From Owenia fusiformis (lineage: Eukaryota): a DNA stretch of 64,000 nt. The translations under genes were made by a program, and so were the position numbers. The notes under the pieces were generated by a model that was given only the letters and a program-made list of their open reading frames with translations, had not been told where the DNA came from and did not search any database. The stretch spans positions 16,554,001 through 16,618,000 of the forward strand of contig CAIIXF020000001.1 of NCBI GenBank assembly GCA_903813345.2, read 5' to 3'. Positions 1,289 to 60,772 of the stretch are shown here, in pieces; position 1 is the stretch's first letter; every line of letters starts with the position of its first letter.

Positions 1289-1674
1289 TATTACATGAGC
1301 ATAATATGTGTTATATTAGCACGTATTGTGACCAAACCTCGCTGTTATTAATAAGTCTAGGATTATGGGCAATCTCTCTTTTGACCTAGTGAATGTTTTA
1401 GCCAATATGATTTCAACTCTATATATTGTCATCAATGTCCGACTTTGTATTCTAGCGTAGATACATGTATGTCTGTCATGTTTTATATAATGGTTAATTT
1501 ATTGTTACACAATCCATGTATTTATATTTATATTTCAATTGTTTCAATGACATGTGTACGTTTTGTTTAGATTTAAACATCCATACGGTTAACACGTATA
1601 TTAATGTGAAATAAAAAAGACAAAAATATCTATACAAAAGTTTACTTTTAAATTATTTTCTAATTTCAAAAATA

Positions 1675-2021
1675 CAGGGTGGGCCAATAAAAATTGGAAC
1701 ATTATTCTATTTATTCAATTATCTTTATTTTTGCAGTTCAATCCACAAAAATTCAGATAATGGTAAACTGATTATTTGTGAAATTTTCTGCATGTGTCAT
1801 AAAAAATTCTCAAGCAGAGAAAATTTGGAATATGTTCATGACTTACACAGTATACAGATCATGACCATGAGAAGCCAAATATAATCATACATACATATTT
1901 GTATCATTGACATTTTCACAAATAATCATTTTATCATTATCTGAATTTTTGTGGACTGAACTGCAAGTATAAAGAAAATTGAATAATTAGAAAATGTTCC
2001 AATTTTTATTGGCCTACTCTG
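1675..2021. mobile_element. Tc1/mariner-type MITE
   Basis: TA|CAGGGTGGGCCAATAAAAATTGGAACATT...AATGTTCCAATTTTTATTGGCCTACTCTG|TA, with ~110-bp imperfect TIRs and no coding sequence. Confidence 0.8.
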
Positions 2022-12539: not shown

Positions 12540-14063
12540 ATTCAAGCTTCCAGTTAATTACCTACACCATAAAATCAATGTTCTAGCTTCTAGTAAATTA
12601 CCTATCACCATAAACTGTAACGTTCAAGTTTCCAGTAAATTACCTCCCACAATAAAATTAACGTACAAGCCTCGGGTAAATTACCTACCACAATAAAAGC
12701 AATGGTAAGCTTCCAGTAAGTTGCCTACCACCATAAATTGTAACGTTCAAGTTTCCAGTAAATTACCTACCACAATAAAATTAACGTTCAAGCCTCGGGT
12801 AAATTACCTACCACAATAAAAGCAATGGTAAGCTTCCAGTAAATTACCTACCACCATAAAGTGTAACGTCCAAGCTTCCATGAATTGCCTACCACCATAA
12901 AATGTAACATTCGTGTTTCCATAAATTGACCTATCACAGTGAAATGTAACGTTCAAGCCTCAAATGAATTACCTATCACAATTAAATTTTAACGTTCAAG
13001 CCTCTGGTATCTGCCATCATAAAGTGTAACGTTCAAGCCTCCAGTAAATTACCTGCCACCATAAAGTGTAACGTTCAAGCATCCAGTAAATTACCTGCCA
13101 CCATTAAGTTTAACGTTCAAGCCTCCAGTAAATTACCTACCACCATAAAGTGTAACGTTCAAGCATTCAGTAAATTACCTACCACCATAAAGTGGAACGT
13201 TCAAGTTTCCAGTAAATTGTCTACCACCATAAAATGTGACGTTCAAGTTTCCATAAATTGCCTCGTTGACCAATGTGACGTTCAATCTTCAAATAAATTA
13301 CCTACCACAATGAAATGTAACGTTCAAGCCTCTGGTAAATTACCTGCCACCATAAAGTGTAACGTTCAAGCCTCCAGTAAATTACCTGCCACAATAAAGT
13401 GTAATGTTCAAGCATCCAGTAAATTACCTACCACCATAAAATGTAACGTTCAAGCTTCCATCAATTACCGACCACCATAAAATCTAACGTTCAAATTTCC
13501 ATAAATTGCCTACCAATGACACGTTCAAACTTCAAATAGATTACCTACCACAATAAAATGTTACGTTCAAGCCTTTGGTAAATTACCTGCCACCATAAAG
13601 TGTAACGTTCAAGCCTCAAGTAAATTACCTACCACCATAAAGTGTAATACGTTCAAGCTCCCAGTAAATTACCTACCACCATAAAGTGTAACGTTCAAGC
13701 CCCAATTTCCATAAATTGCCTACCAATGACACGTTCAAACTTCAAATAGATTACCTACCACAATGAAATGTAACGTTCAAGCCTTTGGTAAATTACCTGT
13801 CACCATAAAGTGTAACGTTCAAGCCTCCAGTAAATTACCTACCACCATAAAGTGTAACGTTCAAGCTCCCAGTAAATTACCTACCACCATAAAGTGTAAC
13901 GTTCAAGCTCCCAGTAAATTACCTACCACCATAAAGTGTAACGTTCAAGCTCCCAGTAAATTACCTACCACCATAAAGTGTAACGTCCAAGCCTCCAGTT
14001 AATTACCTACCACCATAAAGTGTAACGTTCAAGCCTCTAGTAAATCACCTATCACCATAAAGT
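12540..14063. repeat. 42-bp minisatellite, ~1.5 kb
   Basis: Unit ~AAGTGTAACGTTCAAGCCTCCAGTAAATTACCTACCACCATA, which translates as KCNVQASSKLPTTI repeats in the ORF track. Indels and stops occur across the array. Confidence 0.95.
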
Positions 14064-14880: not shown

Positions 14881-17800
14881 TCAACACTGTCCACATGCCT
14901 TAGCACAATTCGCTTGCATCCAATCTGGATTTGCACTGCATTCACCATTGGCAGCCCAAGTAGAGCACTTACTCTCATCAAAGCTGTTCACACAGTTACC
15001 CCCTTGAAGGAGAAAACCAAACTTACATGTTGTGTTTAGGGATACGATGACAAGGCAAATTTTGAAAACCGAACTGACAAACTATATTTATGAACATGCA
15101 TGAATTTAGAAAGTATGTATGTATGAGTCTATGAGAAATTCAAGTTCAGTCAGTGCCAGTTTGTATAATACAAGCAACAACAGAACTTATGGTCCTGCAA
15201 ATATGCGTGATGTGTTATATGGCTGTGACAGTGAGGGGATCCAAATAAATCCTAACACCATATACAAATGCAAAAAAATATGTATTCTCGCAATATGTAT
15301 CCTCACAATACCGAACCCTCACAACACAAAATCCAGACAATATCCAATATCTGCTCCATATCTCCAGAACACAGTACAGCACAAAATACAGGACCCGATA
15401 CCAAATCCCAACAACATCAAATCTGCACAAAACACCCTTTATACATAAAATATGCACAGCAGAAATACTAATAGAGTTGTTTCAAACTCGCCGACTCCGA
15501 CACCCGACACTCGATATAGACTAACAGCTACTGTAAATCATCATAGCATTGATATTTGCAATATTTATTTTCAAATAATTTGGATGTTATAAGAAATGAT
15601 AACAAATACAGCAATTTATGATACTATCAATCAATCAATAAGCATTCAGATATAAATGTATATATACATTGCCACTTACATTTATTTTGATAACTAATGA
15701 AAACCTATACATGTAAGCTACAAGTTCAAATATCTAGTTCATGAAATAAACTGATTTTTCGAACACTGAGCCCTGCACAATTTCAACTATTCTTGCTAAA
15801 TTTTTCCTGGGGTGTCTGGATAGAGTACCCATCACCCTGAAAGCCTTAAGATTACCAATGATGTTCAACATACACACGATTGGACCCGATAATCGTATTT
15901 AGTCGCTTGCATTTTCTCTTCAAATGCCCTGGCTTTGGTCTTAATTCAGATGATTTATATTTTCTAATTATAGGATATTTACACGCATAAATTTTATCTG
16001 CCAAAATTCTACAATCAGCTGGGAAAACTAAATGTTCATTTGGGCCAATCGAATCCATCATTGCAAATGTTTGGGCATCGTTCATATGTCCAAGAAACCC
16101 ACTATGAATGTGTCGGATAACCTTGTTGTTATCAATGATAACTTGAGTATGCATGCAGTGAAAGCCTCTGTTTCCAGAATAGAATTCTTCTTGATTTTCT
16201 ACCTTGGGCCGATAAACTTCATGTGAAGTGCCATCAATTGCACCTAGTGCAAATGGGAGATCATTCCATTGACCACGCATACCATTCCACTCGTCCAAGT
16301 TAGGCCATCGGACCTTTGGGGCATATAATTGATGAAGAATTGGCCATGTGTCATTTATCACCTTGCAAATGGTCGTCCTATGGACATCAAACATAAGTGA
16401 CAGGAGACTGTAGCACGGATATGATCTTAACCATAGGAGTGTCAGTAGGAGTCGATTTCGTGGGGATAGACTCTGCTGTTCCTGATGTCTAATTTGTGGA
16501 AGAAATTCAAGGTACATACTTTGGAAAGTTTCAAGTGTCTCTCCAATGGACTGAAAAAGTTCAAATTCATGCGATGAGAACATTTTGAAAACATCCCGAC
16601 CGTTCCAAACATTTTCCTCATGTGGAAATAAATGTTGCCGTATTCCCGGTAGGGGAGCCAAGGGTGTGATGGCCATTAGCAACAAAGGGATAATATTGGC
16701 ATCCATGATCGGTGGTAGTGGTATTGGTTGGAGTACAAACATAAGTATCGTGATGAGAAGTTGTTTCTGAACCATTGTTAGATGTACCTGGAGATAATTC
16801 AAAATATTTTCAGCAAAATAAATCGATTTACAATATGCCTGGGTCACATTTGCTCCGATCCATCGGCCGGCGCCCGGCCGATTGAGTATTTTTTTCAAAA
16901 GTGTATTCAATTGTGAACAAAATACTCAATCGGCCGGGCGCCGTAGTGAAAATCGGAGCAAATGTGACCAAGGCATTATTTATGGATCATTTCACACACA
17001 GCTTTGAGTAGTGCTACTTTTAGAGCCGCTTGAATCACTTGTTTTATTGATCAGTGTGTAACTTGAATTTGGTACACGTGGACATGGCCTCAAAAGAGCA
17101 ACATGCAGGTAAGTTATTTTGCTATGCACAACTTATGTAAACATGATATAAATGAACTTACGGGCATCTTGGAACGGTTTATTTCACCAACGTACGTATA
17201 GATTGTTTCCTAAATGCAAACACCGATATAACTGATCAAATGCGTTCACCAAAATTGATGAGAACAAGTAAACACTCATGCCTGGATCACATTTGCCCCG
17301 ATTCATCAGCTGGCGCCCGGCCGATTGAGTATTTTGTTCAATACTGAATACAATTTTGAACAAATTATTCAATCGGCCGGGCGCCGGCCGATGAATCGGA
17401 GCAATTTTTCTAGATCTAGCTAATTTTTAGGATTAAAATCTTGCTCGCATGTACAAAAATGTAATTTGATATTATCATATATTGCTGTTTTTGTTATAAC
17501 ATTATAACTTATAACATCCAAATTATTTGAAAATAAATATTGCAAATATCAATGCTATGATGATTTACAGTAGCTGTTAGTCTATATCGAGTGTCGGGTG
17601 TCGGAGTCGGCGAGTTTGAAACAACTCTAATACCAGTACACCAATAACACTACATCAAATCCCAACAACCTAACAAAAAGACATCTGCAGAGTGCTAAAA
17701 CATTGTGTATACAAACACAAAACGATGAACCTCTAAATCAAACAACACGATACCAAACCCACACAACGCTAAATCCCCAAAGCATTTAAACGTCATGATT

Positions 17801-20800
17801 ACAAATCAACGCTAAATCCCAAAAACATTTAAACGTCACAATACCAAATCAACACAACGCTAAATCCCCAAAACATTTAAACGTCATGATACCAAATCAA
17901 CACAACGCTAAATCCCCAAAACATTTAAACGTCATGATACCAAATCAACACAACGCTAAATCCCCAAAACATTTAAACGTCACAATACCAAATCAACACA
18001 ACGCTAAATCCCAAAAACATTCAAACGTCATGATACCAAATCAACACAACACTAAATCCCAAAAACATCTGAATGTCACAATACCAAATCCACATTAAAG
18101 ATAAATCCACACAACATCAAAACGACACAATACCAAATCTCCACAACGCCAAATCACAAAACATCAAAATCCACAGAATGGTAAATCCACACAACATCAA
18201 AGTACCAAATCAATCCAATGCTAAATCCACACAACATCAAAACGACATAATACCAAATCAACACAATGCTAAATCCACACAACATCAAAACGACACAATA
18301 CCAAATCAACACAATGATAAATCCACACAACATCAAAACGACACACTACCAAATCTCCACAACGCCAAATCACAAAACATCAAAATCCACAGAATGCTAA
18401 ATCCACACAACATCAAAATACCAAATCAACACAATGCTAAATCCACACAACATCAAAACGACATAATACCAAATCAACACAATGCTAAATCCACACAACA
18501 TCAAAACGACACAATACCAAATCAACACAATGATAAATCCATACAACATCAAAGCGACACAATACCAAATCTTCACTACGCCAAATCACTACGACACCAA
18601 TCCTACCTCCACTATGACTACCAGCATCATTACACGTACCTCCACTCGCAGGTTTATCATTGTTACCTGCAACCTTAGGCTGGTCTCCTTGCATATTATC
18701 AGAGTTATTTGCTTTGTCTCCATCTCCACCCTTGGCACCTACATGATCAAAAACAGTTTGGTCTATCGGTTGATGTAATTTCATTTGTACATTTACGTTT
18801 CATAGAAATAAAAAATGAGATATTCTATAGATAGGCCTATGTGTAAATTATTGTTATGATTGAAGGAACAGAAATGATATTATTTTGATGATGATATTTG
18901 AGTGTAAATGTTTTCCTGATATCTGAATCATGTAACTCAAAATGAAACATCTAATGACAATGTAATGATTAATGAGTACTTTGCTATATAGAAACGATGA
19001 TTTGATAACTATATAACAACGAAACATTAGTTTGATGCAGGGATATAGACAATACATTAATATATTTTACTTTACTCTTCTGGAGGGGTGGATTACATGT
19101 AACATTAAATGGTCATCATAGTCCATAATGTAGTGCAAGGTCTCGTGTCCTTTGAACACGCCACTGTCATATCTACTTAGTACCTTTCACAGTTGTGTGC
19201 ACAGCAATGTTGACACTATTCACCTTGTTTGGGTCGTCAGCTGGGTCTGTGGATAGAAAAAATTAAGATTATTTTATATTTATTGAAAGTGACTGTACTG
19301 TGGATAAGTACTTGAATATATTTTATTTTTATAGCATCTGGCTGCATTGTGGATTGTTATATTCTCTAATGGCCCGTTCTGTTTCCAGGTAGCTCTCTTC
19401 TTCTACATGAAGTAAAATAATTTCTTAGTTGCATGTTTTTCTTACCACACTTTTTGCAAGACTTCCTGCATACATCCGCCATCCACATCCACATCATGGC
19501 GTCCCATTCACACTGTCCCTGGTCCACAAAACCAGAACAATAGTCTATGCCATCTTTACATTCGACTACAATGAAATCAATATGTATTTCATTATAGTTC
19601 ACCACGATTGCATACATATGTATTACGTAAGTAGGACTTCAATTACCGCTAAACCTACAGTTACCAGACTCGATACAGAAAACCAAAGTGATGGGTCCAA
19701 CCATCAACAAGCAGCGAACGTCTAAAATTACTTCGAGGATAAATAAAATATTTTAATTTGTTCAGGGAACTCATAGATAGTCAATATCACTTGGAAGACC
19801 TTACCATCACATCCTGCTCCACTCCAGCCATCATCACAAGTACAACTGCACTCTTTCTTGTTGAACTTGCCATTCTTGCACCCAGTTAATGTGCATTCTA
19901 AATTAGTTATTAACAATGTACACCAGTTGTTAAATTGGGGACATGTTTCACCAGGGCTGTTTATAAATAAATTCAATCAGCTACTGGTATTATGGATAAT
20001 TTAGTTGGTTTTCTTGGTCGATGCAGCTTTGTTGATTATTGGTTTTATATATATCTTATACTAGTAGTTTTGAATGCCTTCTACCTGTTTTGGGCTGTGA
20101 AGCTACATGGAGCATTTTAAATAATGTTATATGACATAGTACTCACTGCAGTCGCCACCACCAGCACTGCACGCTCTCTTGGATGCTATAAAATATAGAA
20201 TATTTCAAGTTATCCATTTTGCTTTAGAATATACAGGGTGACAAAAAAAACTGGAACCCATAAATCATCAAATTTCTCGGAAAGTATAATACCTACATTC
20301 TTCATTTCTTCAGGGTAGAAACTAGACTGAATGCATGACAAAATGACACAATAATGAGTACTGTAGCTTAGATATTAATCATGCCATGGACGACAGGAGA
20401 AAATACTTATATTGTGAGAAAGCGTATCGAGACAAAATCCTATAAAGAGACACAGACTGCCTATATGAGAGATCACAGGGCAAGAAGAGCCCCTTGCAAG
20501 TCACAGATCTTTAGGCTTGTACAGAGGTTTGATTCGGAAGGAACTGTAAAACCAACAAAGAAGAAAAGTGATGGTAAACCAACCTATTCGGGGAGAGAGA
20601 GGTCTGTCAGAACTCAAGACAACTCAACAGTCATCTCAGAACGTTACATCCCTAACGTTCAAAAGTTTTGGAGAGCGCTGGGTAGACGACGTGACTTGAG
20701 AAGGGACCAGCAATGGCTCCAACAATATGGTGTCACACCCCACACCTCAAATGAGTCCATTCGATGGCTTCAGGCTCACTTTGGTGATCGATTAATCAGT

Positions 20801-23800
20801 CACCATACCCTCCACATCTGCCCCCCCCCCCACTCCCCTGATTTGAAACCCCAGATTTTTGTCTGTGGGGGTATCTCAAGGATAATGTGTATACAGATGG
20901 TCCACTGACCATAGATGACCTCAAAATCAACATTGGAAGATTAATTAGAGAGATAGACAGAGATGAATGCAGTCGGGTCATTGACAATTTTGCAAGAAGA
21001 ATCAATCTCTGCATCCAATGTCGTGGTGCACATTTGGAGCACATTATCTAATCGTGCTTCATTTAGAGACTAATTGATCTAGAATGCTGAAACTTTTACA
21101 TCTTGTCATACATTCAGTTGACTATACCTGTACCAGGTAACTAAGCTCAATATGCATAATTGACAAAGTTATTAAGACTTAAGTGGGTTCCAGTTTTTTT
21201 TGTCACCCTGTATTTAATAAATAGTGTCTGATATTATAAATGCGTCCAACGATCAAACGATCAAATACATACCACACAGAACATTGTCCATACAGAAGCT
21301 GTACCCAACAGGGCACTGGCTGCAAGGTTCTCCCTCAATGTAAGGTTTGTCCTCGATACCAGTTTCAGCATTTGCTGTATTTCCTCTATAAATAAATACA
21401 CGATGTGTCGTTATTGATACCATTGATGTTGACATGTTGACATGTCTACAATACCCAGTGTGAGATATTGCTGCCATTGATATTAATGTTGGCATCAGTA
21501 GCTGAATCACTATTATCTTAATGAAGATTTTTCTTCAATAAGGTCACAACTGTTGAGCTTTTTGGAAAAAAGGCATGACAAAAAACGATAAAAACAAAGA
21601 AAATTGTAAAATTGTGACAAACGTTTCGAAACTAACTCCCAACTCGTCTCTATCACTGCTAGAGAAAAGAATTTATTGAGATACAATGCAAGATAATTCT
21701 TTATTTAGATGATTTATAGGAGTTTGTGTCAATCTTGCACAATATTCTTCTATATTCAATCAAAACAAAAGGTTATTGAGTTCAAACCACTAAAAGGACA
21801 CAAACAACACTTGTTCCTGATGAATGGGTTGCAGACACACATGTTACATATAATGTGAGATTAGCATTATTAAAGTGGCAATTATTCATCTATATTCTTC
21901 TTAATGTGCAAATATGCATAATTTACCTTGGATGTAAACAAAAAAACATCGCCATATTGAACAATTGAAGGAATTGCCCTATGAGTCACTGTGAGTCTAA
22001 TCTCCAAAAATGGATCATATCAGAAAACATGCGGGATGTTATAACTTAAAGATACATCGTCAAGTTCTTTGTTTGTGGTTTTCTCTACTGGCTATAATGT
22101 ATATATGGACATTAACACATTCCACGTGACATACAGTATAATTAAAAGAGAGCATAGGAAATAACTCACTTTTCATATTGACATGTTCTTATGTTTTAGA
22201 GGGGTATATCCAACAGGAATGAAATTATGAAATAAAAATACTTGTGAAAATACGTTGTGATTTGCTTTTCAAATGTTGCCCTTGGTGTTTTATCATTGTA
22301 CTTGCACACTGTTTGTTGAAAACAAATAAAAACAAGCCGGATACTATTAAAAATATTACACTGAATAAAGGTTCCAGACGAACCAACAGCATGCTGAGAC
22401 CTTATTGGTGAACTTTGGACATTCAATCAATTAAAGTCCGTGTTTAACTACGGTATGATAATGACAATCCTCGAAGGTATCTACCCTGGATTAGTATTTT
22501 TACATCAGACTATACAACCTTATCAAGGCCAACATCATCAGCAAAACTGAGAAAACCCGTCAACATGAATGCGTTCATTCTTGCCCTAGCTATTATCATA
22601 TTGATGGGATGCGGCAACACTGCTAGGATCCCATTGTGCAAGAAGCCACAGATTGTTGAACTAAATAAACAACTGACTCAGCGAAATACAGACATTGGGG
22701 AAAGCCTAGAAGTTTTCTCTGGAACTGTTACAGGTGTTATAAGCACATTAGAAGTGAGCCAATCTCTCAAAGAGGCAGCCTTCGGCCAAATGGTAGCCAA
22801 ATATACAACCCTACTCAAATACTTAGAAGAGAAAATAGAACATCTTGAAGAAACCTGCAGCTGCTTCGGTAAGAAATTTAGATGCAATTGTAAATTAAAA
22901 TATGATTATGGTCAACAGTTCTTGACAAACTGAAGTAATGGGTATCATAAAGGTTACAATTTTATTTAATATTATTGTATTTTTGGACTCTAGTACTAAA
23001 GATAACCAAGTATTTAGCTCATAAGTTACTGAGAAAATACTTGTCAAAAGTGTCTCATTTGTTGGGACACCCGATATATGTATCACGATAATCAAAATAT
23101 GAACCCAATGGGGTGCTATTTTAAATGTATGTAGAGTCACGGTGGTCAAATGTCTGTCAAACATCTAAAACTGTGCTGTGACAATTTTTAAAACAAAATT
23201 GTTTTGTTCCAGCCAATCCAACAACACCAGCAGCAAAACCAGTAATACCAACGACACCAACACCAACATCATCTTCAACAACAGCAACAACAACAACAGA
23301 AAAAACAACAAACGGCACAGTAAGAGGGCTAGGGAGAGCGGGTGCAGAAACAACAGAAATGTATGACAGCTTTGATGTTAAGAAATGACAAACTCTATCT
23401 CACTCTATTTGGGGTATGACACCATTTCCATGGGAATGTCGTATTAACAAATAGCTGTGGTGTATGTTGTATGTTTAGACCTAATCATGATACCATGATA
23501 CAACTGGGTCCTAGGAATAGCCAAGATAAGGGATGGGTTTGAACCTTTAAAATGTATGATAAAATTGCAAAAATAGATATATATATTAGAACATATATTT
23601 TATTTTTTGTTGCATGGGCCATGTTATTATGTTACATGTATGTGATCTAGGGCAACACTTGATTAAAGTCCACAGTTGGTAGCTACTGAAGTCAAATCCA
23701 TTTTATGGGAAAGTAACCCATTTGTAAGTGAAATACCCAACCGTGCCTAATAGTTGGAAGACAAATGAATCTGACAGGATTGGATCTCTATAACTATCAT

Positions 23801-26800
23801 TGAACAAGACAAAGCATATATTGTAAGTTATGATAAAAGAGATGACTTCAATTTTGATATTATAGATTTTCCACACTTGGATAGTAATATTTAATTGAAC
23901 CCAGTATATGGGGTCTATGTTTCCCAGCCTATTAGATATAGCAGGACATGCTCGAAATATTAGTTTTGAATCAAGACATAATTATTTTAGGCCAAGTTTA
24001 AACAAGTAAAAAACGTAAACAACACTTTTTAGGCTTTATTGAAAAATATAGATCACTAGATCTAAGTTTTGCCACTTGACATGTTCAGGGACTTGGCACT
24101 TTTAGGGTGGATCCGACTTTGGTATTAATGGTTGAGAAATAGGGATCGAAACCAGCCATAGTTTTCTCCTGACGAGAATCGTGAAATATTGTTGCTTACT
24201 GATTATGGCGTCGGCTTTGCGGATGGATCTTGACACTTTGATAAACTTATGGATTTCGAGACAGGATTTTGTCTGTCCCACATCATTTGAGACTGAATGC
24301 TCTTGTATGAAAATAGTAGTACCTACAATTATTATTAAATGGTGGGGAGGGGGTATCAGACATTGTTTCTTTTAATGTTAGATATTGATTTGGGATAGTT
24401 GGGGCTTGTTTTCCTAATGACTGGAGTACTCTCAGATGTTTTTTGTCTTGCTGTATTCTGTAATAATTGTTTGTCATTTCCCTATGAGACTCATGCATAC
24501 ATATTCATTTGCGCAAAACCTTTTTTCCAATTTGTAATCCAATAAAAGTGTTTTCATGAAACTACTCATTATATCCTTATTCCTGACACTCTTCCCTTTC
24601 TTGCGGTATTTTGATAACCTTGGGGCAAATAGTGTTGACTCTCGTTTGCCCAACTACAAATCCCCATAAGCCATATTGATATGAGGAATTAACCTTCAAA
24701 ACTACGCGCATGACATTTGTAATTCACAAAAGTGTATAAGATTTAGACATAATGAGTTAGCATTCGTTTAACAAAAACAGTAAAATTCATTGGGGTTTCA
24801 ACATCTTCCTCACATTCTTTAAAATAAAATGATGCGCTTTATCTATTGATGAAAGGTCATTTTCTTTAAAACTTTTAGCATCAATAACCCATCTAGAATA
24901 GGATAGGCATGGCTCTAGCATGGATGCAGACATAAATTGATAGGTCATTGTCTTATGACTTCAAATGTTCATAATCATTTAATTTGACAAGAAAGGTTAA
25001 TGAGTGTATACCTAATCTTCCCACATAATTCCATAGTCACTAAAACGATATTGTTTTATAAATCATCAAACTTGACAGTTTGCATGAGTCTTGCTGATTA
25101 CAGAGGTGGAAAAACATAGCATGTTTTAACAATCTCCTATTGAAACAATTCCATGGTGATAAAATTGAGCTAAATGCATTTCAACTTGACAGTTTATATT
25201 GTACTGTAATGAGAAATTGTCATGATGACAATTCTGCATATAATAATAGATAGTATCATTTGGATGTATAAGTCAGATAAAATATAAAAATGCCATTCCT
25301 TGGAATGGAGGAAATGACGTGTCTTGATATGTCTAGTGACCTTTTATAGTTAATGAAAACACAAAACGATATTCTGCGCCAAGGGCTGATGTGAAAGAGT
25401 CAGTCCACCAATATAAATTATAATGCTTTCTTAATGCTAGGTTTTCTTCTCGGGTAAAGTTTAAAATCACCGTAAAGGTTCTACACTTTCATTATGGGTG
25501 TGAGGTACTATATATAATCATAAAAGAAACACATTAATTATGAGAGATCAAAACTTGTAAAGGAAATGGTTTTTGAGGTATAGGAATGACCAATTTCTGA
25601 GCCGAAGATGAGTTTTAAACAAAATTATCTATTGAAATATAGGTAAAGCAATGTTCAAGATGGATAAAATGCTCTAGATAAACAACCAAGATAAAGTCAA
25701 GCTAACCTAAATATGATGTCTACTGTCTGGGCACATCAACAGCATGCTGATAGCTAATTGGCCAGCCATGGAGAGCCAAAGTCAAGGATTGACGAGCAGA
25801 TAGTCACTGTCTCTGTGTCAGCTGTTACAAAATGATGATGATCTCTAGCCTATATCTAAAGTCTGTATCAATAGCGAGTGTCAAACAGTCGGCGCTACAG
25901 AGTAACATCGGCAACAAAACAAAACAAGACAAGAAGTCTCAAGATGAATGTATGCATTGTTGCACAAGTTGTATTAATCCTGGCATGTACCAGTTTTATC
26001 AGTGCCTATGTACCGCTTTGTAAAAAGCACCAGCTCATAGCTCTTACTGCGCAACTGGCAGAAAGAGATGCGGTCATTCAGGGAAAGCTAGATGGTCTTA
26101 ATGAAACAGTTGCTCTGATTGAAAACTCTATTGCAGCGAACGAGGCCAGCAATTCAGCAGCCTATGATCTCATGACAGCCAAGTTTGATGATCTTATTGG
26201 CATGCTAGAGGATAGGCTTGAAAATCTCGAGGAAAGTTGCAAATGCAGGTATCTTATGACAGGTAGGATTCTTTTTAACCTATTGGCAAAATCATGTTAA
26301 ATTATGGAGGATAGAGGAATGGATGATGTTTTGTTCAGATCTGATACTGTTTGGATAAAAACACTAAAATGTCATCGCCCAAAGCTTTATAAAAAGTGAC
26401 ATATTCACCCACCTCTCTAAACTTGTATAAATGTATGAAGACCGACTGGGCATTGACCGCTATATGCACTTGTCAAATGATTTTAGACCCAGTGTTCTAA
26501 AGTTTTGAGACACAACAGGATTCATGGTCAGTGAAAAATGTGAAGAAAGGGAATAAAGATGATGGATTGAGCCAATTTTGTAATTTAGGGATAGATGATC
26601 TCCCCACCCCATACTTTCGTTTCCATATAACCTCCTATCGTTTCATTTTATTTCAAGGCAATAGTGAACATATGGTTAACCATCTCATGTCTTTTGGTGT
26701 CCATAGTATATTACAATGACTACTAAATATTTATATAATTTTATTTCAAGGCAATAGTGAACATATGGTTAACCATCTCATGTCTTTTGGTGTCCATAGT

Positions 26801-29800
26801 ATATTACAATGACTACTAAATATTTATATAATTTTATTTCAAGGCAATAGTGAACATATGGTTAACCATCTCATGTACTTTGGTGTCCATAGTATATTAC
26901 AATGACTACTAAATATTTATATAATTTTATTTCAAGGCAATAGAGAACATATGGTTAACCATCTCATGTCCTTTGGTGTCCATAGTATATTACAATGACT
27001 ACTAAATATTTATATAATTTTATTTCAAGGCAATAGTGAACATATGGTTAACCATCTCATGTACTTTGGTGTCCATAGTATATTACAATGACTACTAAAT
27101 ATTTATATAATTTTATTTCAAGGCAATAGTGAACATATGGTTAACCATCTCATGTCCTTTGGTGTCCATAGTATATTACAATGACTACTAAATATTTATA
27201 TAATTTTATTTCAAGGCAATAGTGAACATATGGTTAACCATCTCATGTCCTTTGGTGTCCATAGTGATATTACAATGACTACTAACTACTAACTACTATG
27301 GTTTATATTTAGTGCCACCTTAATTTTAACGACACCGTAGTGTGAATATGTATTGTATTTCATGTACTCTTCTTTGAAGAACACCTTGTATTGCTGTACA
27401 ATAAATAATCAAAAGTTACATATTTGTGTTGTATGGAAAATGCAAAAGATTATTTCGAAAGTGCAGTATACAATCTATATACATGTACAGTTACATAATT
27501 CGAACAAAAGTAACTGTAGTATGTGGAACAAACTACTGTTCGAATTATTAAACAAGAATGCACTGAAATTCCAACAGTATAGAATTATAATATATAAACT
27601 TAAAATGTAGTGTTGAAAATAACGGTGTGCTATATTCTTAAAATTACAATTTTCAAAATATACCTGATGGAATATGACGGGTGAAAAAATGCATTTTTGT
27701 TTTAGGGTTTTTCTCAACTACAAAAGCATTTAAACCAGCAGCAAAAGCAGAAACAACCACAACAACAACCATCCGACCAACAACAACAACAAAATTAACA
27801 ACAAGAACAACAACAGAAGCAGCAAATGAAAGGGGAAGAGCGGGAGTAGAAACGCTAACAACAGAAATGTATGACAGTTTTGATGTTAAAAAATAATATG
27901 CATGTTATTTTCTTCTGTTTTTAAGTAGAGCATCATTGTCACTGTGGAACATTGTTGTGTGGTACATGATACGACATAGATGAAACTCTGAACAATGGTC
28001 TGGTTGCAAAACTCAAAATTGTATGATAAAATTGGGAAAATAAATATCTAAAAACACAAATACTTCTGTTAGCTGTACGTAACATGAGCCATGCTAGAAT
28101 CTTTATAGGTTGGATAGTAATGCAAAGCTGAAAATACACCCTATGTATACTGGAGCGAGCAGAAATAATCGGTGCGGATAACATGGGTGTGCAGTGCGGG
28201 ATAACGGTCATCTTTTAATTTCAATTTGCCACAACTATTTTGAACACCGATACTGTAAAATGCTGAGAAAATGAATAACACACTTATTCTAACAATTTCC
28301 TTGATATCGAATGTCAACTTTATATATAACTGAAACCCCAATGGCTTAGTTTAAAGGTATCATAAACAAGTTCAAATAACGATCGTTGTCTCCTCACCGC
28401 CCGCATTTATCAGCATGGGTAGTTTTCTGCGCGATCGGTCCCCATAGGTGAAATCTAAGTTATCAGATTCATCCCAAGGTCCAGGGGAAACATTTTGCTG
28501 ATGACTACATACCAATTAACCCAAATTTACGTGTTGATATAAAATATTCGACTTCCAAAATACACATACGATATCATTTCAGTTCCTCCAGGTGGTTAAC
28601 ATTACGGTGAAATAAAAAGTGATCGGATGTAAATGTTCCGCTCCAAAGATTTTAGTCATATTGAATGATGAATAGGTCATGTAACATGTAATGATAAACA
28701 AGGTCAGTGACATAAATGATATAGAAATAACACATCCTGTAGACATAAAGCTTATTATTAAATACTATTGTTTTACGACTATAAAATATATGAACGTGAA
28801 AAGATGAATATGTTTTTATTCCCAGTCATTGATGCATCATATGTTATGAGTTTTAGCAAACAATACCTTTGATTTAATATAATTTCAAAAAAAGTCATAA
28901 GTAGATATTTTCTGAATGAATGAGTTTATATGAACAATGAATGAATGAATGAATAATGAAAACTATAATTAAAAAAAACAATATGCTCGATCACAGAAAA
29001 AATGTTGAAACTTTAAAGTGTGCCTAAAATATTGTGATTTGACTAGTTTTTACCAGTCATGAGCACTTACAATTGGGTACACGTTTAAATCAAAGTTTCA
29101 TCTTTATACAAGAAAATTGTATAATCAAATTATTCTAATTAGATTTATATATTTCAAATACAAACACATACCAGACCGTAGCCAGCTTTTACCAAGGGGG
29201 GTCACTTCTTAGAAGTTTCCAGGGGTGTCACTTTTGACAATCTTGTTCCAAATATCGCCAAAATCACTTAAAAAGTTGCTCAGAATGGTGAAACATTGCA
29301 TGATTTTGAAAGAGGGGGGCACTAACCTATCGACCCCTCCCCCCCCCCCCCCCGGCTATGGGCCTGCATATGAAATTTCTAAAGGTGTTTGATAATTATT
29401 CCTAGTAACAAAATTGAAAAACATTAAGAGATAAAGCCTGTTCTATGCTGTAATAAACATTGATATACGTGCTGTCTAAAATATTATTAGAGATGATTCG
29501 CAACTCACTTATCATACTGTATATAGCATGTTCATTATTCCCAAATTATGAAGCGCCTGATTACTACGTCATCATTTATTGCTGTTTTGTTGGAAATGTG
29601 TTTTCATATAGCCTGTCCACTCAGTTTGCAACCATCGGGAGACATTTAGATAAGAGAGATGTTTCGAAGAGACAATGGTCGTCCTCTCAGATTATCTACT
29701 TTGATTTGCTCTATTCATAGTTCCCAGTTCCCCTCACCACCGCAGTCGCACTGCACTTTACATGCATGTATCTAAATTGTGCCATGTTATGTATCTTTAT

Positions 29801-32800
29801 GTATCTCACACTTTAAATCAAATATACAGTATTTCATATAACGATAAAAAATAATATGATTGATTGCATATCTTAAATGAATAATCAAACAGATAGTACC
29901 CTTCACATTCTACACTTGATGGTATATGTAGTTTGTGAAAGATAAGATTTTTCGATTTTCCATAAATATATGATTTGGATGGACACAATAGGAATATACT
30001 ATGGTTTTGAAAAAATATCATTTGTATCCATGAGTGTATATTGATATCTTCACGAGTGAGCACGGCGAATGAGTGAAGATATCGATATCCATGAGTGGAT
30101 ATTGAAAAACATGAAAAGAAATATTGATAAAATCTAAACCATCGAGTATCACATTTTGAGAAGTGATATTCGATAGTTTGAGAAGTGATATTCGATGGTT
30201 TGGGGAATTTTTGCTATAAAATGATATCTTGATCAACATATCAAATATAACTTCGCCTGATATTCGATCTATATCATTGTAACCATGGGATAAGATTGGA
30301 TTATATCTTTAACAGGCGTATAACTAACTTCCAAATCGAAAAACTTATTGTCATTAAATTATGCAACAAAAAACTTGTGTGTGGTACTCAAATAAAGTGT
30401 CTCGGCACATCAACAATGTTCTGAATGCCAATTGGTCAACTGTAAAGAGCAAAGTCTAGAACTGACAAATGGAAATAAAACATTATTGATTTTTGATTCG
30501 ATCCTGAACTTTGTCTTACATCTTTATATTATAAGAACTGCTTATCAGACAGTCAGCAACACAAAGCAACACAAGAGAAAGGAATAGCTCCGATATGAAT
30601 GCATCCATTCTCATCCAAGGTGTAATTATGCTGGTATATATCAGCATAATTGATGCTTATGTGCCGCTTTGTAAGAGGCACCAGATTCAGACGCTAACGG
30701 AAGAACTGGCAGAAAGAGATACAAATATTCAGGGAACGCTAGGCGATCTCAGTGCGTCCGTTTTGAGCATAGAAAGAGCAATTGCAGTTAGCAATGCCAT
30801 AAATAGTGCAGCCTACAATCACATGACAGCCAAGTTTGGTGACCTAATTGACATGTTTGAGGATAGGATTCGAAATCTGGAGGAGAGTTGTACATGCAGG
30901 CATCTTACGACACGTGAGGATGTTTTTATAATCTGTTGTAGTCATGAAGCGATAATGTGATACTTTTTTCATAATTATCTAATTCAATGATAGTCCCAGC
31001 TGATACATAACATTGAATGTATTGAAATGTCATTAAACAATCATTAAACAAGAAAACATTGAAATTTCAACAACTATAAATTATAAACTTTCATTGAAAA
31101 TAAAGTGACTGTAATGACTGGAATAGCATATTCATACAATCATTAAAAAGAAAACGTTGAAATCAACTGTTTGACTTATGTTGTTCGAAATCATGGTTCG
31201 CGAAATAGTGTATCAATAACATTATAGTATATTACTTTAGATGAGTGATATGTCATTTTTGAAACTGAATTAGCAATCCAGTGGTATATCATACACGAGA
31301 AATACCTGATGAATTATAAAATGAGCATGGACATGAAGGTGTACTCGTTATTTGACCATGTTTGTGTGTAAAGTGTATGATTGTGTAGTGTATAAATTAA
31401 AATTCTTAAAATAAGAACTTGATAGCTTCTGCAAAAGATCATTGCGAACATTTAAATATAAATGTTTGGGTATTTTGGGTAAAGGGGGTGCCATTTCTCC
31501 ATTTATATTTTATGTAAATTCAAATTGTTTACTCTAAAACACACAGAAATTAACTTTCTGCTAAAATACCCAAAAGAAAATACTTTGTTCGGAAACTAAG
31601 CAGATGAATGCGCCAATTGCTACAACAATCAAATCAGATTGTAGTTTGTAAAAATAGAAAGCAATAGTGTGACACAGTCCCATGTAAGTTCATCTTTCTG
31701 GTTTATATAATAGCTTAAAACAACTTTTTTCATTTAATTTTATTCATTCCTTGAAAAAGACTTGTGGACACAAGTCGAAAATCTTGATGTAATAAAATTG
31801 TTTTCTTTGTGTGACATATTTTTCAGTTTAAACCTTGAGAAAAAATTTTGTTTCAGAATTTCTCTCAACAACAAAAGCACCAGAAAACCCAGAAGTAAAG
31901 ATACGAGTAGAAACAGCAGAATCAACTAGAATGCCAACAACTACAACAACAACGGAAAGAACAACACAAACAACTACTAAAACAACACCAACAACAACAG
32001 AAAAAACAACCCCCACCACCGTCACAACAGTAAAAACAACCCCCACCACCGTCACAACAGTAAAAACAACCCCTACCACCGTCAAAACAGTAAAAACAAC
32101 ACCAACATCAACAACTGTGAAAACAACACCAACATCAACAACAGTAAAAACAACACCTACATCAACAACAGTAAAAACAACACCTACATCAACGACAACT
32201 ACTACAACAGTAAAACCAACACCAACTGCAACATCGAAAGTAGAAACAACACCAACTACAACCACAACAGTAAAAGCAACACCTTCTTCTACAACAACAA
32301 CAGAACCAACAACAGTAAAAGTAAAAACAACACCCACAGTGACTACAACAACAACTACAAAAGCAGCAACAACAACAACAGATGGAGAGGGAGATGGGAA
32401 GTGGAAGGGGGGTCAAAAACCGGGAAATGCAAAAGGACGTTTGGGAGAAACAACAGAAATGTATGACAGCTTCGATGTTTGAAAATGAATGTACATTTTC
32501 TTTACACATCAGTAAGCACAAATAAATGGAAACCTCGTTGGTGTTTTAATATTTATTAATCCCATTTGTATCTCAAGTGAATGATGTTTGTATAATATAG
32601 AGCAAAGAGTAAATTGGACAAAATAAATATATAATTTATTATCATTTTTCTCTTTCATATCTCAGTAATTAATGTGCAACGAAACATCAATTCAATAATG
32701 TATCCAATACTTAAATTCAGGCAATATAGCATATAATAGTAGGTATAAAACACATAAGATGCTTTACAAATGATCAAATCAACTCTCATCAACATGGAAG

Positions 32801-35800
32801 ATAAACAAACAAATAAACAAGTAAAAAGGCATTAACATGGAAAATGTCACCACCTTCCATTTGTTACTGACACCATACACCCGAACCCCGAATCTGGAAC
32901 ACCGTCCGCAAAAAATTGGAAGACTATAGCATCGCTTGTGGTGGTGACATAACAAAAACCAAATCTTACCCTGGTGCATAGTTACAGTGCATGATATCCC
33001 AGCCATCTCCACAGTCGTTATAACCGCATCCTACTAGGCTGGTTGTGGCCCACACGAGGGCAGTATAGTGCCCGCAGACAGCATTGCATGATGGTCCACT
33101 GTACGAATAGTCTTTATACTCATTGTACCAAGCATCAAATGACCTATAAAATGAAATCATGATCCAATATAAATTGTGTAACATTTTTTTCAATGATAGA
33201 TATTTTGTTTTGAATTGTTTTACAGAAGACGCACCACAGCAATTAAAAAAATACAAATCTTTTTTGCCTCTATCGCATTTGCCGCAGTGGTTGTAGGCTC
33301 AAAAATGCCTTCGACCAAAAGCGAACATTCCCAAGGTCACATACTGAATAGCAGCAGTAGTCACATATGTGGCAAAACCACTATGATGGAACCACTATGA
33401 TGAAAATGATGATAAGTAAACAATGCAATTATAAAACTTACTGTCGAATACCATAATTTCCTGCATAGTTTTGCCCTACAAATGGATACGGCTTAAACAT
33501 CCTCTCTTCATTGGTGTCATGTCCCTTTAAGCATGTATCAGCACGTCCTTGGGCACTTTTCTCCAGTCTATCATCCCATTCCTTAAAAATGTAAAGACCA
33601 TTTGCTTGGTACCAAGTTAAGTCAATCCTGGCAAACACGTGCGACCCCCCCCCCCCCCCCACAAAAACATAACCAATAAAAATGAAACCACTAGATAGAA
33701 GAAGAAAGGAACTTTGAAATGCTTTTTATTTGAAGCTGAATTTTGAAGGAAATTGCATCAATTTTTGTAAACTTCAAATCAAATCTAAACTTTTTTTTGG
33801 CTCGCTCATACCACGTTCGCACCCCCCCCCCCCCCCCTGACTGAAACCCCAAGTTTTGCGATCGCACCCCCCCCCCCCTGACTGAAAGCTGGCTACGCCC
33901 CTGTCACATAATCTACATCTACATTACCACCCCGGGTGATCAATATCCTGTGTTCCGAATTTCGTTCCAGCAAGTCAGTGACCCGAGTTGTGTTTTACTG
34001 AATCCCGACAAATATGGCGGCTAATTTGACAACAGACGATGTTGATGTCGACAATTATTCAAAACTTTCTGACAGCATAAGGTAAGACTGAATATAGAGT
34101 GGCGCATTCGGTGCCTAAATATGTTTGCAACATTTTCTTAGTTGTTTATCCATATGCGTTGGGCATTACTGCTAATCGAAGCATAAGTAAACGTGACCTC
34201 ATTTTCAACGCTCGCTGGAAAGTATGTCACCGAGCAGTTTTTGACCTTCTGTTAGTTAATGAGATAAACTGTTATCATGGTATAATTGCTGGGTAGACGT
34301 TCAAAGTATGTACCAACTCATACTTCCAGTGAATGTAAACCATTTCTTTGCATAAGCGTCCTAGAAGGCATAATAAGATATATTCCATAGTACCGAATAG
34401 GAATCGCCAGTGTTCCGACGCACTTCATGGATAAATGCTCATAGACTATTGAATCATAATGAACAGAAGCAGTGTATACTCACGTGTGATATCTTAATTT
34501 ATCAAAAATAAGAATTGAATGCATTTGATAATATTGATACTTTGCCAACTTGACTGATTTTTTTCTAGTCTGAGTAATTAATAAATGAGTAGTGGATTTG
34601 ATTAATTGAGGATTTCCCATGTTAAAATATGTGAAAATTGTCAAGAGGCCACACACATCAGAGGATGAGAGTACAATACAACATGTGTAAATTATGAGAC
34701 TATGTTGCAACACCTTCAAAGAATGGTCATTTCACAATCCACATTGCACATACTGTAGCAGGCATTTTTATGATATATTTTAACATTGTCACAAAAACCA
34801 GGGATTGACAAAAAATATAGCATATCATATAGCAGGTATATGCCAGGTATTGTAATATATTTCAACGTTGTCACTGTTAGAGTAGGCATTACAATTTACC
34901 CATAAAAATATAATAATATTGACAACAGGCTAAAAAGTCTTCACTTAGTAAGCCATAAATGTCACATAAAGGCGACGGTCACACCAGGCTTTCACGATAG
35001 CATTGCTAAGGTAATAGTCCCTGGTATGACTTCCGAATATGAAGGATCCGTAGCACACTATAGCGCAGCAACATTTGAAGCAATATTTATGAAGGTGTAT
35101 AGGTCTTGATTCTTTTATAATACCATTTGCCGAAAAAACTTCCGGCTTTCGGGTCGAAAAATGTATTTCATCACAAGGGGTCAAAAAACGTAAATATTTT
35201 GATTCGAACTTTTATAAATTTTATAAGACACAGACCGTTATTCTAAGCATACGAACAAAAAAATTGATTATCATAATGTCAAAATTACTATGATTTTACT
35301 GTAGATGTCGGTGTTTAATTAGTGTAATTACACAAGTGTGTTTTTCAGATTTTGTTTGATTTTTCAAATATGAGCTAAGCCGATTCAACAAAATTGTATG
35401 GAATATTTAGGTAATTTTTTTTGATTGGGAACGTATTCGTTTTCCGGGTAGTTTTCTTACCAGTTAAAACATTTTATTACCAGAATTTTTCCATATAATC
35501 GTAAAGGGTCTAACAACAAATTATTGTTGATGTTTTATAAAACATAATAAAATAACAAATAGGTAAGATTCATATCTAATTCGATGTTACAGAGGTATTT
35601 GCATGTTCATATATTCCAAGGGCATGTCTAATAATCAATTAGAGTCATATGCAGTCGAACGCCTTACAATTCTTCCTCGACGTTAGTTGTGGCTATCATC
35701 AAGTTTTCTGATGGTTGTTTCTTCTTTGACCTTACCGAAGGATGCAATCAAATTTTAGGAAGATAATGATAACGATTTTTCTCAATTATTCATGAATTCG

Positions 35801-38800
35801 ACCAAGTCTTGATGGTTGTTTCATAAGTAACTGAGCTATTTCTAACTACGAGAAATGGAATTTTAGCTGTAGTCGCAATTAGTCAAGGGAGAGCAATAGG
35901 CCCACCTTTATTGATAATGTTCACCGCTGAATAAAAGTTCATATCTTAAAACGTATTGAGACCCATTTTGCGAAAAACTAGCATAATTTAAGCATTTGTC
36001 ATTCTAATAGAAAAGTGATTCATTTGTAGCATTTATCTTATTAATACCCGAGAAACAATACAAAATGTCGATACACTGATGACATAATCTTTTGGTATTG
36101 AATAGAAAAATAACCTCAAACTTTTAGCTTAGAAACCTAAATCATATACTTAAAATCATATTTTATTATTTGCTATTGCATTGTGTACTCCAAATTGTAA
36201 AAGTTTGGAAGTTTATTTTTTGGAAATTTTTTGACCTCTGTTAATGGCAGGCATAATTTAGCCTTAAAGCCGGAAGTATATTAAACGGTTATAATAAAAA
36301 TTATTAGGGGACATATGTAGGTATGCTTATGTTAGGTCAAATATCGCTGCGCTATAGTGTGCTACCAGCTCCTTTATTAGACGTCCTAGAGATTTCATAC
36401 CATGGACTATAATGGCAGGATCCATGCATAATTTATTAAATCAGGCCCGCAGATAGGAGGGGGGGGGCCTGGTCAGATATTCTCTCAAAAACTTGCAGTT
36501 TTTCACCATTCTGAGCACTTTTCACATGATTTTTTGCCAAAACAACAGATGCCAGCCAGATCATACTTATAGTAGAAGGCTAGGCTCAAATAAACCTCAA
36601 ATTGAGGTATTATCATTGAGATACTGATACTATACATACATACGATCGTGCTATCAAAACTGTCAAAAAGCCCCACCCCCCCTTGGCAAAAACTCCACCC
36701 TTGGTAAAACCGCTCACCAATGGTGAATCCTGGATACGGGCCTGTAAATGGTCATCGTGGTTGTACCAGACAGCAATGCAATGTTTTGATTTGCACACAT
36801 TTTTTATTTTTAAAAATCTAATTGAGAGCATCCTAATCATGTGAAAAGTTCAATTTTTTTTGAATAGTTATATTCCTTCTATAAAGTGGGTACACTTTTT
36901 GGGACACCCTGTATTTGCAGTTCAATGCCAATGTGGAAATCAATATACAGGGAAATTCGATCTTGAATTTGTAAAATAATAACAAGAAAGGTAGCACCAA
37001 ATTAGCTTGATGTATTCATGAATTGGATTCTCAAAAGTATACAAAATATATATAATCTTATTCTGTAGCTTCGGGACAATGGCGATTCCTATTCGGTAGA
37101 ATGGAATATATCTTTCAACGACTTCTATGACGCTAATGAAAGGAAATAGCTTGGATTCAAACATAGCACAAGTTGAGACATACTAATAAGGTATACTTTA
37201 CAGTTATACAATGCTCAGAGTATCCATCATTACTTACAGAAGGCAAAGAACGACTCGCTGATATCGTTTTCTGCGAGCTTTTCGAATTGGGTCATGTTGG
37301 TTTCATGCTTCGATTTGCATTAATAGCCTACACATATGGATAATCGTTTATGAACATGTTGAAAACATATTCCAGCACCGAATGCATTACTCTATATTCA
37401 TTCTTTCCTTATGCTATCTGATTTGTTTGACACATTTTCGTCACCTGGCTCGTCGAGACGCCATATTCATCGGGATTCAGTAAAAACACAACTCGGGTCA
37501 CTGACTTGCTGGAACGAAATTCGGGACACAGGATATTGATCACCCGGGGTGATTACACTCTATGCAGATGTAGACTGTGGGAAATATTATGCGCTGTATA
37601 AAAACGACAATTTCAAAATCTAGGTAGGGGATGGGTTTAATGCATGGGTACCGCGTCGATAGAGACACTTGACTACACATATGAGTATATTTGAAGTCCC
37701 AAAATGGCTCAGTTTCATAAATATCCACCAAAAATTCAAAAATGACAGTTGCCTCTGCTTCAAACGCACATTTCTGCCGCACCAAATATTTCCCACAGGC
37801 TCCGTCTGCATCGGGTGCATTACATGCATTAAAGATATGTGAGTGAAGATCCAATCTTAGATGAAAAATTTAAATATGAATACCATAAGGAAAAACACTT
37901 ATGTAAGGGATTGAAAAAAACGAATTCATTGATGCTTTACCAACCATGTTGTAATTTTTCTGAAATAATTGTGCTGGATAATCCGGTTGATTGTGCCAAC
38001 TTCGAATTTGATTGTGCCAATTTTAATAAACGTCTAAGGCATAACATGAAGATCATCAGACTTCAAAGTTTGGTAAGTACGAAAAGCCTACGCAAATGGA
38101 CCAGACAGGGTATTTTAGCTTAATAAGGGTATGAGCAGCATTTCGCTTGTGGGAAATATGATTTCGGTGGAATATCCATTAGTTTTAGTTGTTTGGTTGG
38201 TCAGAGGGCTTTTTGAAGCTTTACATAACAATTTAGTTACTAGGCTAACCCTATTATATATGCATGATGCATAAATAACAAAAATTGGCATTGAAGGTCT
38301 TTCTCAGTGAATATAAGAAAAAGTCGACCGGAGATTACTTCTCAATAAAAAATAAAACTGAGAATATTTTACCATGAGTCACTATGCAGTATGCATCGTG
38401 CGATGCACATCTAAATGATGTAAAATGTCAAATCTAGCTACCATTTGTTACAGACGCGGACCGCCGAATGCCGAACACCAATCGGCGGACGCCTCGCCCT
38501 TAAGAAAAAAGCCATGGTAACCATGGTATTCCATGGTGCGCCCATGGTAATCCATGGTTTTCTATGTTATTTTCCATGGAAATTCATGGACGCCCATGGT
38601 AATCTTCCATGGATATTTACCATGATTTTCCGTGGTAATTGTTGGTTTGGTAATTAGTTTTTAATGGATGTGTCATGGAGATGTAAAATCAACAATTTTG
38701 GTAGGATTTGTATTTACCAAAATCTCCAAAATGAATGTTTTGATGATATATCCCAGTTAGACTGAGACTTATCATTGAGAAAAAAGGGTGGACTTTTCAT

Positions 38801-41114: not shown

Positions 41115-41156
41115 GGTTGCAGATGAAGTTTTGGGGAGGGTAAAAATGATCATCCT

Positions 41157-60295: not shown

Positions 60296-60772
60296 AATAA
60301 GAACAAGGAATATCAAGAACAGCATACAACGGTCGGATTTATATGACTAGCACTACTGGTAAATAACGCAGTAGCCTGACAGTCTCCACTGGTGCATCTT
60401 CTCCGTCTAATTTTCAAATGAGTTGAAACCAAACCATAGATCTATTTTAAGATGTTATGTTTAAATTGTATTCTATTCAAAATATATCACTGTTAAATTA
60501 TATATCTGCTTTAAATGGGCTTATTAGCCTTTGCAGATTATTGACATAAACATCTGTTCCATTTCTATCTCTATACATTATAACTACATGTATATAAATA
60601 CATAGATCAAGAGTAGACTAGCTGAACATGTATAGCTTATTAAGTTTTATATTTTATTGCAGATGTGACATGAGCAAAAAAGATCCAAAATGAACATTAA
60701 CTATTCTAGTCAGACAAAGTATTAGCCCAAGTCTTATGAACCTAGTCTATTCCTTCCACCAGTACACAGAAT

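Follow-up and report, generated by a model that had tools for sequence, protein, structure and literature searches.

Three tandem genes for predicted coiled-coil proteins with Thr-rich stalks and a shared C-terminal peptide lie within one intron of a CAP-ShK gene of Owenia fusiformis

We analysed a 64-kb stretch of Owenia fusiformis DNA (the window; all coordinates are those of the whole stretch) that holds three related two-exon genes, A, B and C, on its + strand between positions 22565 and 32482. The three genes are paralogues, B and C yield spliced transcripts, and the whole trio is nested antisense within a single intron of a gene of the CAP superfamily that carries a ShK domain. With moderate confidence, we propose that A, B and C make up a lineage-restricted secreted family, in which a parallel coiled-coil rod locked by Cys residues would bear an O-glycosylated spacer and an invariant C-terminal working end.

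The reading frames of all three genes are intact after splicing and run to a single terminal stop, predicting proteins of 159 aa (A), 169 aa (B) and 314 aa (C). Each intron is bounded by GT..AG, is in phase 1 (the codon is split after its first base) and has a pyrimidine-rich run before the AG. Exon 1 of gene A (22565-22868, ATG at 22565) encodes a signal-peptide-like start, the motif PLCKKPQ, a helical domain and the motif LEETCSC, and closes with one base of the split codon followed by the GT donor; exon 2 (23213-23388) encodes a 46-residue Thr/Ser/Pro-rich stalk, the tail TTEMYDSFDVKK and the stop. In gene B, exon 1 (25944-26262, ATG at 25944) consists of 106 codons plus one base, and exon 2 (27706-27896) encodes a 51-residue Thr-rich stalk, the tail TTEMYDSFDVKK and the stop. 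Exon 1 of gene C (30595-30913, ATG at 30595) likewise holds 106 codons plus one base, and its exon 2 (31857-32482) encodes a 198-residue stalk, the tail TTEMYDSFDV and the stop.

All three proteins share one layout: a signal-peptide-like start, PLCK[K/R]xQ (PLCKKPQ, PLCKKHQ and PLCKRHQ in A, B and C, respectively), a helix of ~80 residues, LEE[T/S]CxC (LEETCSC, LEESCKC and LEESCTC), a Thr-rich exon 2 and TTEMYDSFDV. Judging from the sequence, the signal peptides are probably cleaved after ISA, IDA and NTA; each mature chain then holds three Cys. Exon 2 codes for 58, 63 and 208 residues in A, B and C. Thr, Ser and Pro together make up fractions of 0.52, 0.41 and 0.60 of the respective stalks, none of which contains Cys, and the 198-residue stalk of C (91 Thr, 18 Pro and 9 Ser) is composed of ~27-30-nt tandem repeats. 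An earlier note on this DNA had described three + strand genes with this architecture and a common phase-1 intron, the two Cys-containing motifs, the shared tail and Thr-rich second exons of just these lengths; the coordinates, frames, splice sites, motifs and stalk compositions all bear out that description.

One public protein, P0001, is letter-for-letter identical to the gene C model, including residues 1-106, which correspond to exon 1, and across the junction. It is on record as an unnamed, uncharacterised Owenia fusiformis protein and is the sole member of its 90% cluster. Word-index searches and a profile search found no public proteins for A and B. Standard annotation captures the trio only in part, with a public protein found for C alone.

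Spliced transcripts were observed for B and C. We aligned four of the 14 listed sequencing runs (X1, X6, X12 and X14) to the window. One X6 contig, which begins at or before 25889, joins the exons of gene B (25889-26260 to 27704-27824, GT..AG, depth 313); its joint is printed as 26260>27704 (cut +2), for which 26262/27706 is the equivalent reading. Another X6 contig joins the exons of gene C (30913>31857, GT..AG, depth 47) and extends back to 30523. The B intron bins 26505-27478 are without depth in X6. Run X1 is DNA-like: 29 of 30 bins are covered, its contigs 25934-26614 and 30390-30949 cross exon-intron borders unspliced, and it has no B or C joints. Because the X1 contigs are unspliced at the borders of both genes, the spliced forms in X6 are RNA and not retrocopies present in X1; the retrocopy explanation was rejected for that run, whose contigs cross both borders without such joints.

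Two of the three junctions that had been put forward for mapping, 26262/27706 and 30913/31857, are therefore spanned by RNA. The third, 22868/23213 of gene A, was not seen: X6 depth is 0 over 21635-24069, and the A joint is absent from the joints listed (15 of 24). Gene A remains a prediction, in whose favour stand its intact frame, its conserved splice sites and an exact copy of an upstream 14-mer, CAACAGCATGCTGA, otherwise found only before B.

This 14-mer, which contains the 10-bp palindrome CAGCATGCTG, is located at 22384-22397 on the + strand, 181 nt 5′ of the A ATG, and again at 25737-25750 on the + strand, 207 nt 5′ of the B ATG. These are its only exact copies (starting at 22384 and 25737), and ATTGG stands ~8-10 nt further on. 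A degenerate counterpart with four mismatches, counted by eye, precedes gene C (~30411-30424, + strand). The sequence block 181-207 nt before the ATGs is a candidate for a shared promoter element.

The nesting of the trio rests on a single 1323-nt X6 contig with six minus-strand (CT..AC) joints, at 19246/19446, 19565/19805, 19897/20147, 20185/21273, 21385/32970 and 33141/33440. The joint 21385>32970 skips 11,584 nt and, consequently, A, B and C all lie within a single host intron (21386-32969, - strand). The open reading frame (ORF) holding host exon 32970-33141 matches the Pfam family CAP (36.3 bits, cut-off 21.1) and the ORF holding host exon 19446-19565 matches ShK (22.5 bits, cut-off 20.9). 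The exons of both domains occur in the one contig, which places the host gene in the CAP superfamily with a ShK domain and confirms the nested antisense arrangement that the earlier note had proposed. By eye, the loose end of the host contig at 33582 continues at 40921, marking a second large intron of ~7.3 kb (33583-40920, - strand); the host's first exon (40920-41115, - strand) has a signal-peptide-like start near 41115, and the gene spans at least 19.2-41.1 kb.

Repeats also occur in this region. Inside the B intron, at 26645-27285, a 93-bp unit is repeated 6.9 times at 98% identity, forming a young minisatellite without X6 depth. The summed contig depth of X1 reaches ~1000-4400 at 24070-24556, 28940-29426, 29914-30400 and 20174-21147, compared to ~5-20 around them, and these segments are dispersed repeats inside the host intron. 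An ORF at 20372-20908 (+ strand) matches only the HTH domain DUF4817 and looks like a transposase remnant.

The mature parts of the three exon-1 peptides can be aligned without internal gaps, and a ladder of hydrophobic positions runs through all of them. B and C agree at 53 of 85 columns (62%), while A shares 35% identity with B and 36% with C, in agreement with an earlier manual count and with the placement of A as the more distant copy. In tblastn searches within the window, the exon-1 copies match each other at E values of 1e-15 to 1e-36, a likeness beyond chance, and only three such places exist in the 64 kb. Between the mature exon-1 regions of B and C, nonsynonymous divergence (dN) is 0.253 and synonymous divergence (dS) is 0.736, a ratio of 0.34; dS is 1.24 for A-C and 1.96 for A-B. 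The introns of B and C have only short matches in common, the longest of 49 nt. The high dS and the short intron matches indicate that the duplicates are old, and the sequence comparisons characterize A, B and C as old tandem duplicates under purifying selection.

Conservation is highest at the C-terminus, where all 10 of the 10 residues of TTEMYDSFDV are identical in A, B and C, even though dS ranges from 0.7 to ~2. The 33 nt that code for (E/L)TTEMYDSFDV are located at 23347-23379 in A, 27855-27887 in B and 32447-32479 in C (+ strand). When the printed 33-mers were compared by eye, they differed at one base (A-C), three bases (A-B) or four bases (B-C), three copies being too few to claim constraint at the RNA level. 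By these comparisons, the tail is evidently the most constrained part of the protein.

We then compared the trio with known families. In Pfam-A, the exon-1 domain matched no family above its gathering cut-off (the best was COG3_N, E 0.0076, with 16.6 bits against 27.9), and exon 2 of C matched 0 families. A profile search over 1.84 billion representatives returned four proteins, namely P0001 (gene C) and P0002, P0003 and P0004, the last three of which were judged repeat or coiled-coil look-alikes and rejected as relatives. P0002, 743 aa long, carries ...LNEALAERDTQIHGLN... in ~20 tandem copies, and these align to profile positions 10-43 alone; its E value of 4.7e-10 is summed over 11 stretches, and the match falls on the LAERDxxIQG stretch of the trio helix. 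We take this likeness to be convergent coiled-coil sequence and not homology.

Other searches gave the same outcome. Word-index searches with B exon 1 against near-length and longer proteins found none, and a search for longer proteins that match the C-terminal 40 residues of A (E up to 1) found none; both of the longer-protein searches missed P0001 too and are hence weak. With P0001 as the query, Atlas yielded no usable feature matches and structure rows with template modelling (TM) scores of 0.12-0.21. A Foldseek comparison of the single-helix model with the PDB gave 0 matches, and a sequence profile against the PDB gave nine rows, the best of them dynactin (E 0.0093), with no matrilin or COMP chains. 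Rfam had 0 matches over 21000-34000, and a metagenome scan with the trio profile produced 590 pattern matches, 0 of them confirmed. Literature searches, including by two accession numbers and with supplements outside their scope, found no published account of the family. The family, which the earlier note had likewise failed to recognise, is unrecognised and apparently lineage-restricted.

Structure prediction points to a long helix. AlphaFold2 modelled the B exon-1 domain as one unbroken helix (residues 4-84) with a mean predicted local distance difference test (pLDDT) of 89.1 and a predicted TM score (pTM) of 0.47, and its best model of the A mature domain is a helix over residues 4-79 (mean pLDDT 88.8, pTM 0.43). 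In the best models of B and A, the helix continues through the middle at block pLDDT values of 91-96. A single 12-nm helix is not stable by itself, and the B domain was therefore modelled in three copies. The three-copy domain scored 0.78, compared to 0.02 for the best of three controls. As a calibration, the 0.78 mark was reached by 21 of 30 microbial proteins whose solved structure is a pair of identical chains and by 0 of 23 solved as single chains; among eukaryotic proteins, it was reached by 17 of 29 pairs (7 of 16 from animals) and by 0 of 30 single chains, with only one of seven among the eukaryotic pairs that have no older solved relative. This calibration is based on two copies and not three, and the trio alignment was left unused in the three-copy run.

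Across the three-copy runs, contacts agree to at least 87% and partner pLDDT is at least 84. The contacts with the lowest error are same-residue pairs between chains (38-38, 31-31 and 67-67), indicating that the modelled bundle is parallel and in register. Its interface residues (4-10, 13, 17, 21, 24, 28, 31, 35, 38, 42, 45, 49, 53, 56, 60, 64, 67, 71, 74 and 78) follow the 3-4 spacing of a coiled coil, with a register shift near residues 49-53. In the model, C78 belongs to the core with C80 next to it, and C5 is part of the N-terminal contact patch. Of 20 recurring interface positions, 17 carry a hydrophobic residue in every paralogue, compared to 7 of 55 positions elsewhere in the helix. For B, the modelled sequence, this comparison is partly circular, yet the pattern holds for A and C, which the fold had not seen. 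The modelling supports self-association of the exon-1 domain as a parallel, in-register coiled coil, which is our best model, and agrees with the coiled coil that had been suggested from hydrophobic periodicity.

Based on these models, the assembly would proceed as follows. Once the signal peptide has been removed, the exon-1 domain would form a single helix of ~80 residues. In a parallel bundle, one end would gather the N-terminal Cys of every chain (mature position 5) and the opposite end the CxC pairs (78 and 80), and inter-chain disulfides would lock the bundle. In a parallel dimer, all Cys could be paired. In a parallel trimer, the CxC pairs may close a ring of three inter-chain bonds, leaving the three N-terminal Cys; with three Cys per chain, a simple closed trimer would have Cys to spare. 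Because these three N-terminal Cys cannot all pair within the bundle, they may join two bundles head to head or attach another protein. The outcome would be a rigid rod that bears two or three (or six) Thr-rich arms, each tipped by the same acidic, Tyr-containing peptide.

The Thr/Ser/Pro-rich product of exon 2 would be O-glycosylated and act as a stiff spacer of ~46, 51 or 198 residues. The tail TTEMYDSFDV would be the working end, a ligand or anchoring peptide that possibly carries a sulphated Tyr, and trimming of the KK of A and B would give all three proteins the same free C-terminus. In an extracellular secretion or matrix, the tail would be displayed multivalently and at differing distances from the rod. 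A C-terminal membrane anchor was considered and dropped, as the tail is acidic rather than hydrophobic.

Several observations weigh against the proposed mechanism. Spliced B and C were found in X6 alone, with one contig per junction, and gene A is without RNA support. In the raw RNA-seq runs X12 and X14, of which ~6 and ~12 in 100 of each run were read, depth is 0 on the exon-1 bins of B and C and 0-0.4 on their exon-2 bins; such zero or near-zero depth indicates that expression is restricted. On the structural side, both AlphaFold2 predictions used an alignment of only three sequences, four of the five models of A have pLDDT values of 63.5-71.5, and coiled-coil bundles pass structure predictors easily. 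Three copies of B were the sole oligomer modelled, so the predictions do not discriminate between two, three or four chains. Finally, no relative outside the species was found, which leaves the domain without an independent evolutionary test.

The conserved tail could also be explained if it were the product of a peptide precursor, with the helix and stalk merely a pro-region or carrier. Cleavage would occur at the conserved G-R just upstream of the tail (RGLGR/AG, ERGR/AG and KGR/LG), followed by trimming of KK. The tail is indeed the most conserved part of the protein at these synonymous distances, a basic residue precedes it in all copies (a single conserved Arg, 11-14 residues upstream), and, with A and B ending in KK and C ending at V, one mature C-terminus is possible for all three. 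However, each precursor would contain a single copy of the peptide, and a dibasic or R-x-x-R site common to all three copies is absent. Furthermore, a mere spacer would need neither the purifying selection seen on the exon-1 domain (dN/dS 0.34) nor its conserved hydrophobic core, and the repeat-expanded, 198-residue stalk of C is hard to explain as a pro-region. We regard a peptide precursor as unlikely.

Two further alternatives concern the helix itself, and we give both of them a still smaller chance. In an obligatory A/B/C hetero-oligomer, each gene would contribute one chain to a three-chain rod similar to that of fibrinogen, and the arms would have three different lengths. The three paralogues do share the same core register and Cys positions, and B and C occur together in X6, but A has zero depth there compared to contig depths of 313 for B and 47 for C, and B alone gives a confident homotrimer model. 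A simple closed trimer, moreover, would leave some of the three Cys per chain unpaired. The hetero-oligomer that the earlier note had entertained is improbable in its obligatory form, although B and C may still combine. Alternatively, no stable bundle would form, and the domain would be an amphipathic helix that binds surfaces or lipids, or would double back, held by an intramolecular bridge between Cys5 and Cys78/80. This scenario is compatible with the odd number of Cys, with a polar middle rich in Ala, Asn and Ser (mature ~43-52) that could permit a turn, and with the low pTM of the monomers (0.47 for B and 0.43 for A). Yet the best AlphaFold2 models of A and B consist of one unbroken helix that remains confident through its middle, and the three-copy interface makes contacts along the full length, from residue 4 to 78. 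A helical hairpin stapled by Cys5-Cys78/80 was dropped, as the AlphaFold2 models keep a single helix.

The proposed Cys-locked rod has counterparts among known extracellular proteins. In matrilin-1, a C-x-C pair forms the ring of inter-chain disulfides; COMP has C-x-x-C. As modelled, the trio would come nearest in working principle to the matrilins, COMP and thrombospondins, which it would resemble in being secreted, in having a parallel coiled coil that sets the number of arms and in placing Cys beside the heptads. Passages of a matrilin-3 study (PMC2726956) describe its coiled coil as mediating homo- and hetero-tetramers. The trio has no sequence relation to these proteins, and none of their coiled-coil families appeared among its Pfam matches at E up to 1. 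Its helix, at ~80 residues, is about twice as long, its Cys are at both ends, its domain is N-terminal and its arms are mucin-like instead of consisting of vWA, EGF or TSP modules.

The tenascin assembly domain (the hexabrachion) and the N-terminal disulfide knot of fibrinogen are three-chain coiled coils in which extra N-terminal Cys join bundles head to head. The same joining would make use of the spare Cys5 of the trio, a role that is purely conjectural here. Homology between the trio and either protein was not detected, and the trio lacks FN3, EGF and fibrinogen globes; no fibrinogen family was listed by Pfam, and none of the four profile matches was fibrinogen-like.

The arms invite other comparisons. 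In PSGL-1 and GPIb-alpha, an O-glycosylated Thr/Pro-rich stalk presents a short acidic sulphotyrosine peptide, and hirudin has an acidic tail. The trio tail similarly surrounds its Tyr with acidic residues (EMYDSFD), making it a putative site of Tyr sulphation. PSGL-1 and GPIb-alpha, however, are membrane proteins with an N-terminal peptide, whereas the trio lacks a membrane span beyond the signal peptide, and its peptide is the free C-terminus. Like secreted, gel-forming mucins, the trio combines a putative signal peptide with a repeat-expanded region similar to their Pro-, Thr- and Ser-rich regions (T+S+P of 0.60 in C). Unlike mucins, the proteins are very small (159-314 aa), would oligomerise by a coiled coil, have no Cys in their stalks and gave no Pfam matches to vWD, cystine-knot (CT), SEA or trefoil domains.

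The window as a whole is AT-rich (GC fraction 0.31-0.43 per 2 kb) and eukaryotic in build. On the - strand, a 1379-aa open frame (4019-8158) has an NWD1-like winged helix and WD40 propellers, and the next ORF upstream (8182-8856) has a P-loop NTPase start (AAA_16, below cut-off); from their sequences, the two together look like an NWD/NACHT-WD40-type gene. A 357-aa open frame at 15852-16925 (- strand) contains DDE_Tnp_4 and HTH_Tnp_4, as in a Harbinger/PIF-type transposase, and an intron-less gene at 60746-62488 (+ strand) encodes a 580-aa BTB-BACK-Kelch protein. Long A/C-rich tandem arrays at 12986-14002 and 17799-18678 (+ strand) have open frames that would read as repeated peptides (...KCNVQASSKLPTTI... 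and ...PNQHNAKS...), with strongly negative GC skews of -0.24 and -0.285, and are unrelated to the trio by tblastn. Most X12 and X14 reads in the window match only in part, at repeats and poly-C tracts. The poly-C tracts at 29334-29354 and 33645-33662 collect many odd joints and loose ends in these two runs (29354>33645 and 33662>29334), which we take to be low-complexity read artefacts.

Overall, A, B and C form a new sequence family that follows a known principle and has so far been found in a single species, and the trio neatly illustrates a secreted protein family that is expressed, selected and taxon-restricted. A bolder version of our proposal is possible but doubtful. In it, the proteins would be a new extracellular assembly module, with disulfide-knotted trimers (or hexamers or chains, through the odd Cys) that show an invariant, possibly Tyr-sulphated peptide on glycosylated stalks of 46, 51 and 198 residues. 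They would serve recognition or anchoring in a way specific to the lineage of this early-branching annelid, which dwells in tubes, for instance in its tube lining, its mucus or an egg or larval coat. A role in mucus, tube lining or coat is a guess suggested by the animal's habit, and the tube cement and coagulation-like secretion of the earlier note are likewise conjectural.

If the proposed rod is correct, the family would be a compact, sequence-unrelated answer to the problem that matrilins, COMP and tenascins solve, which is to set the valency of extracellular arms through a Cys-locked coiled coil, and it would mark the short peptide at the C-terminus as the part that is conserved to do the work. 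Oweniids are an early branch of the annelids and build tubes. A role of the trio in their secretions, if true, would bear on the origin of such materials.

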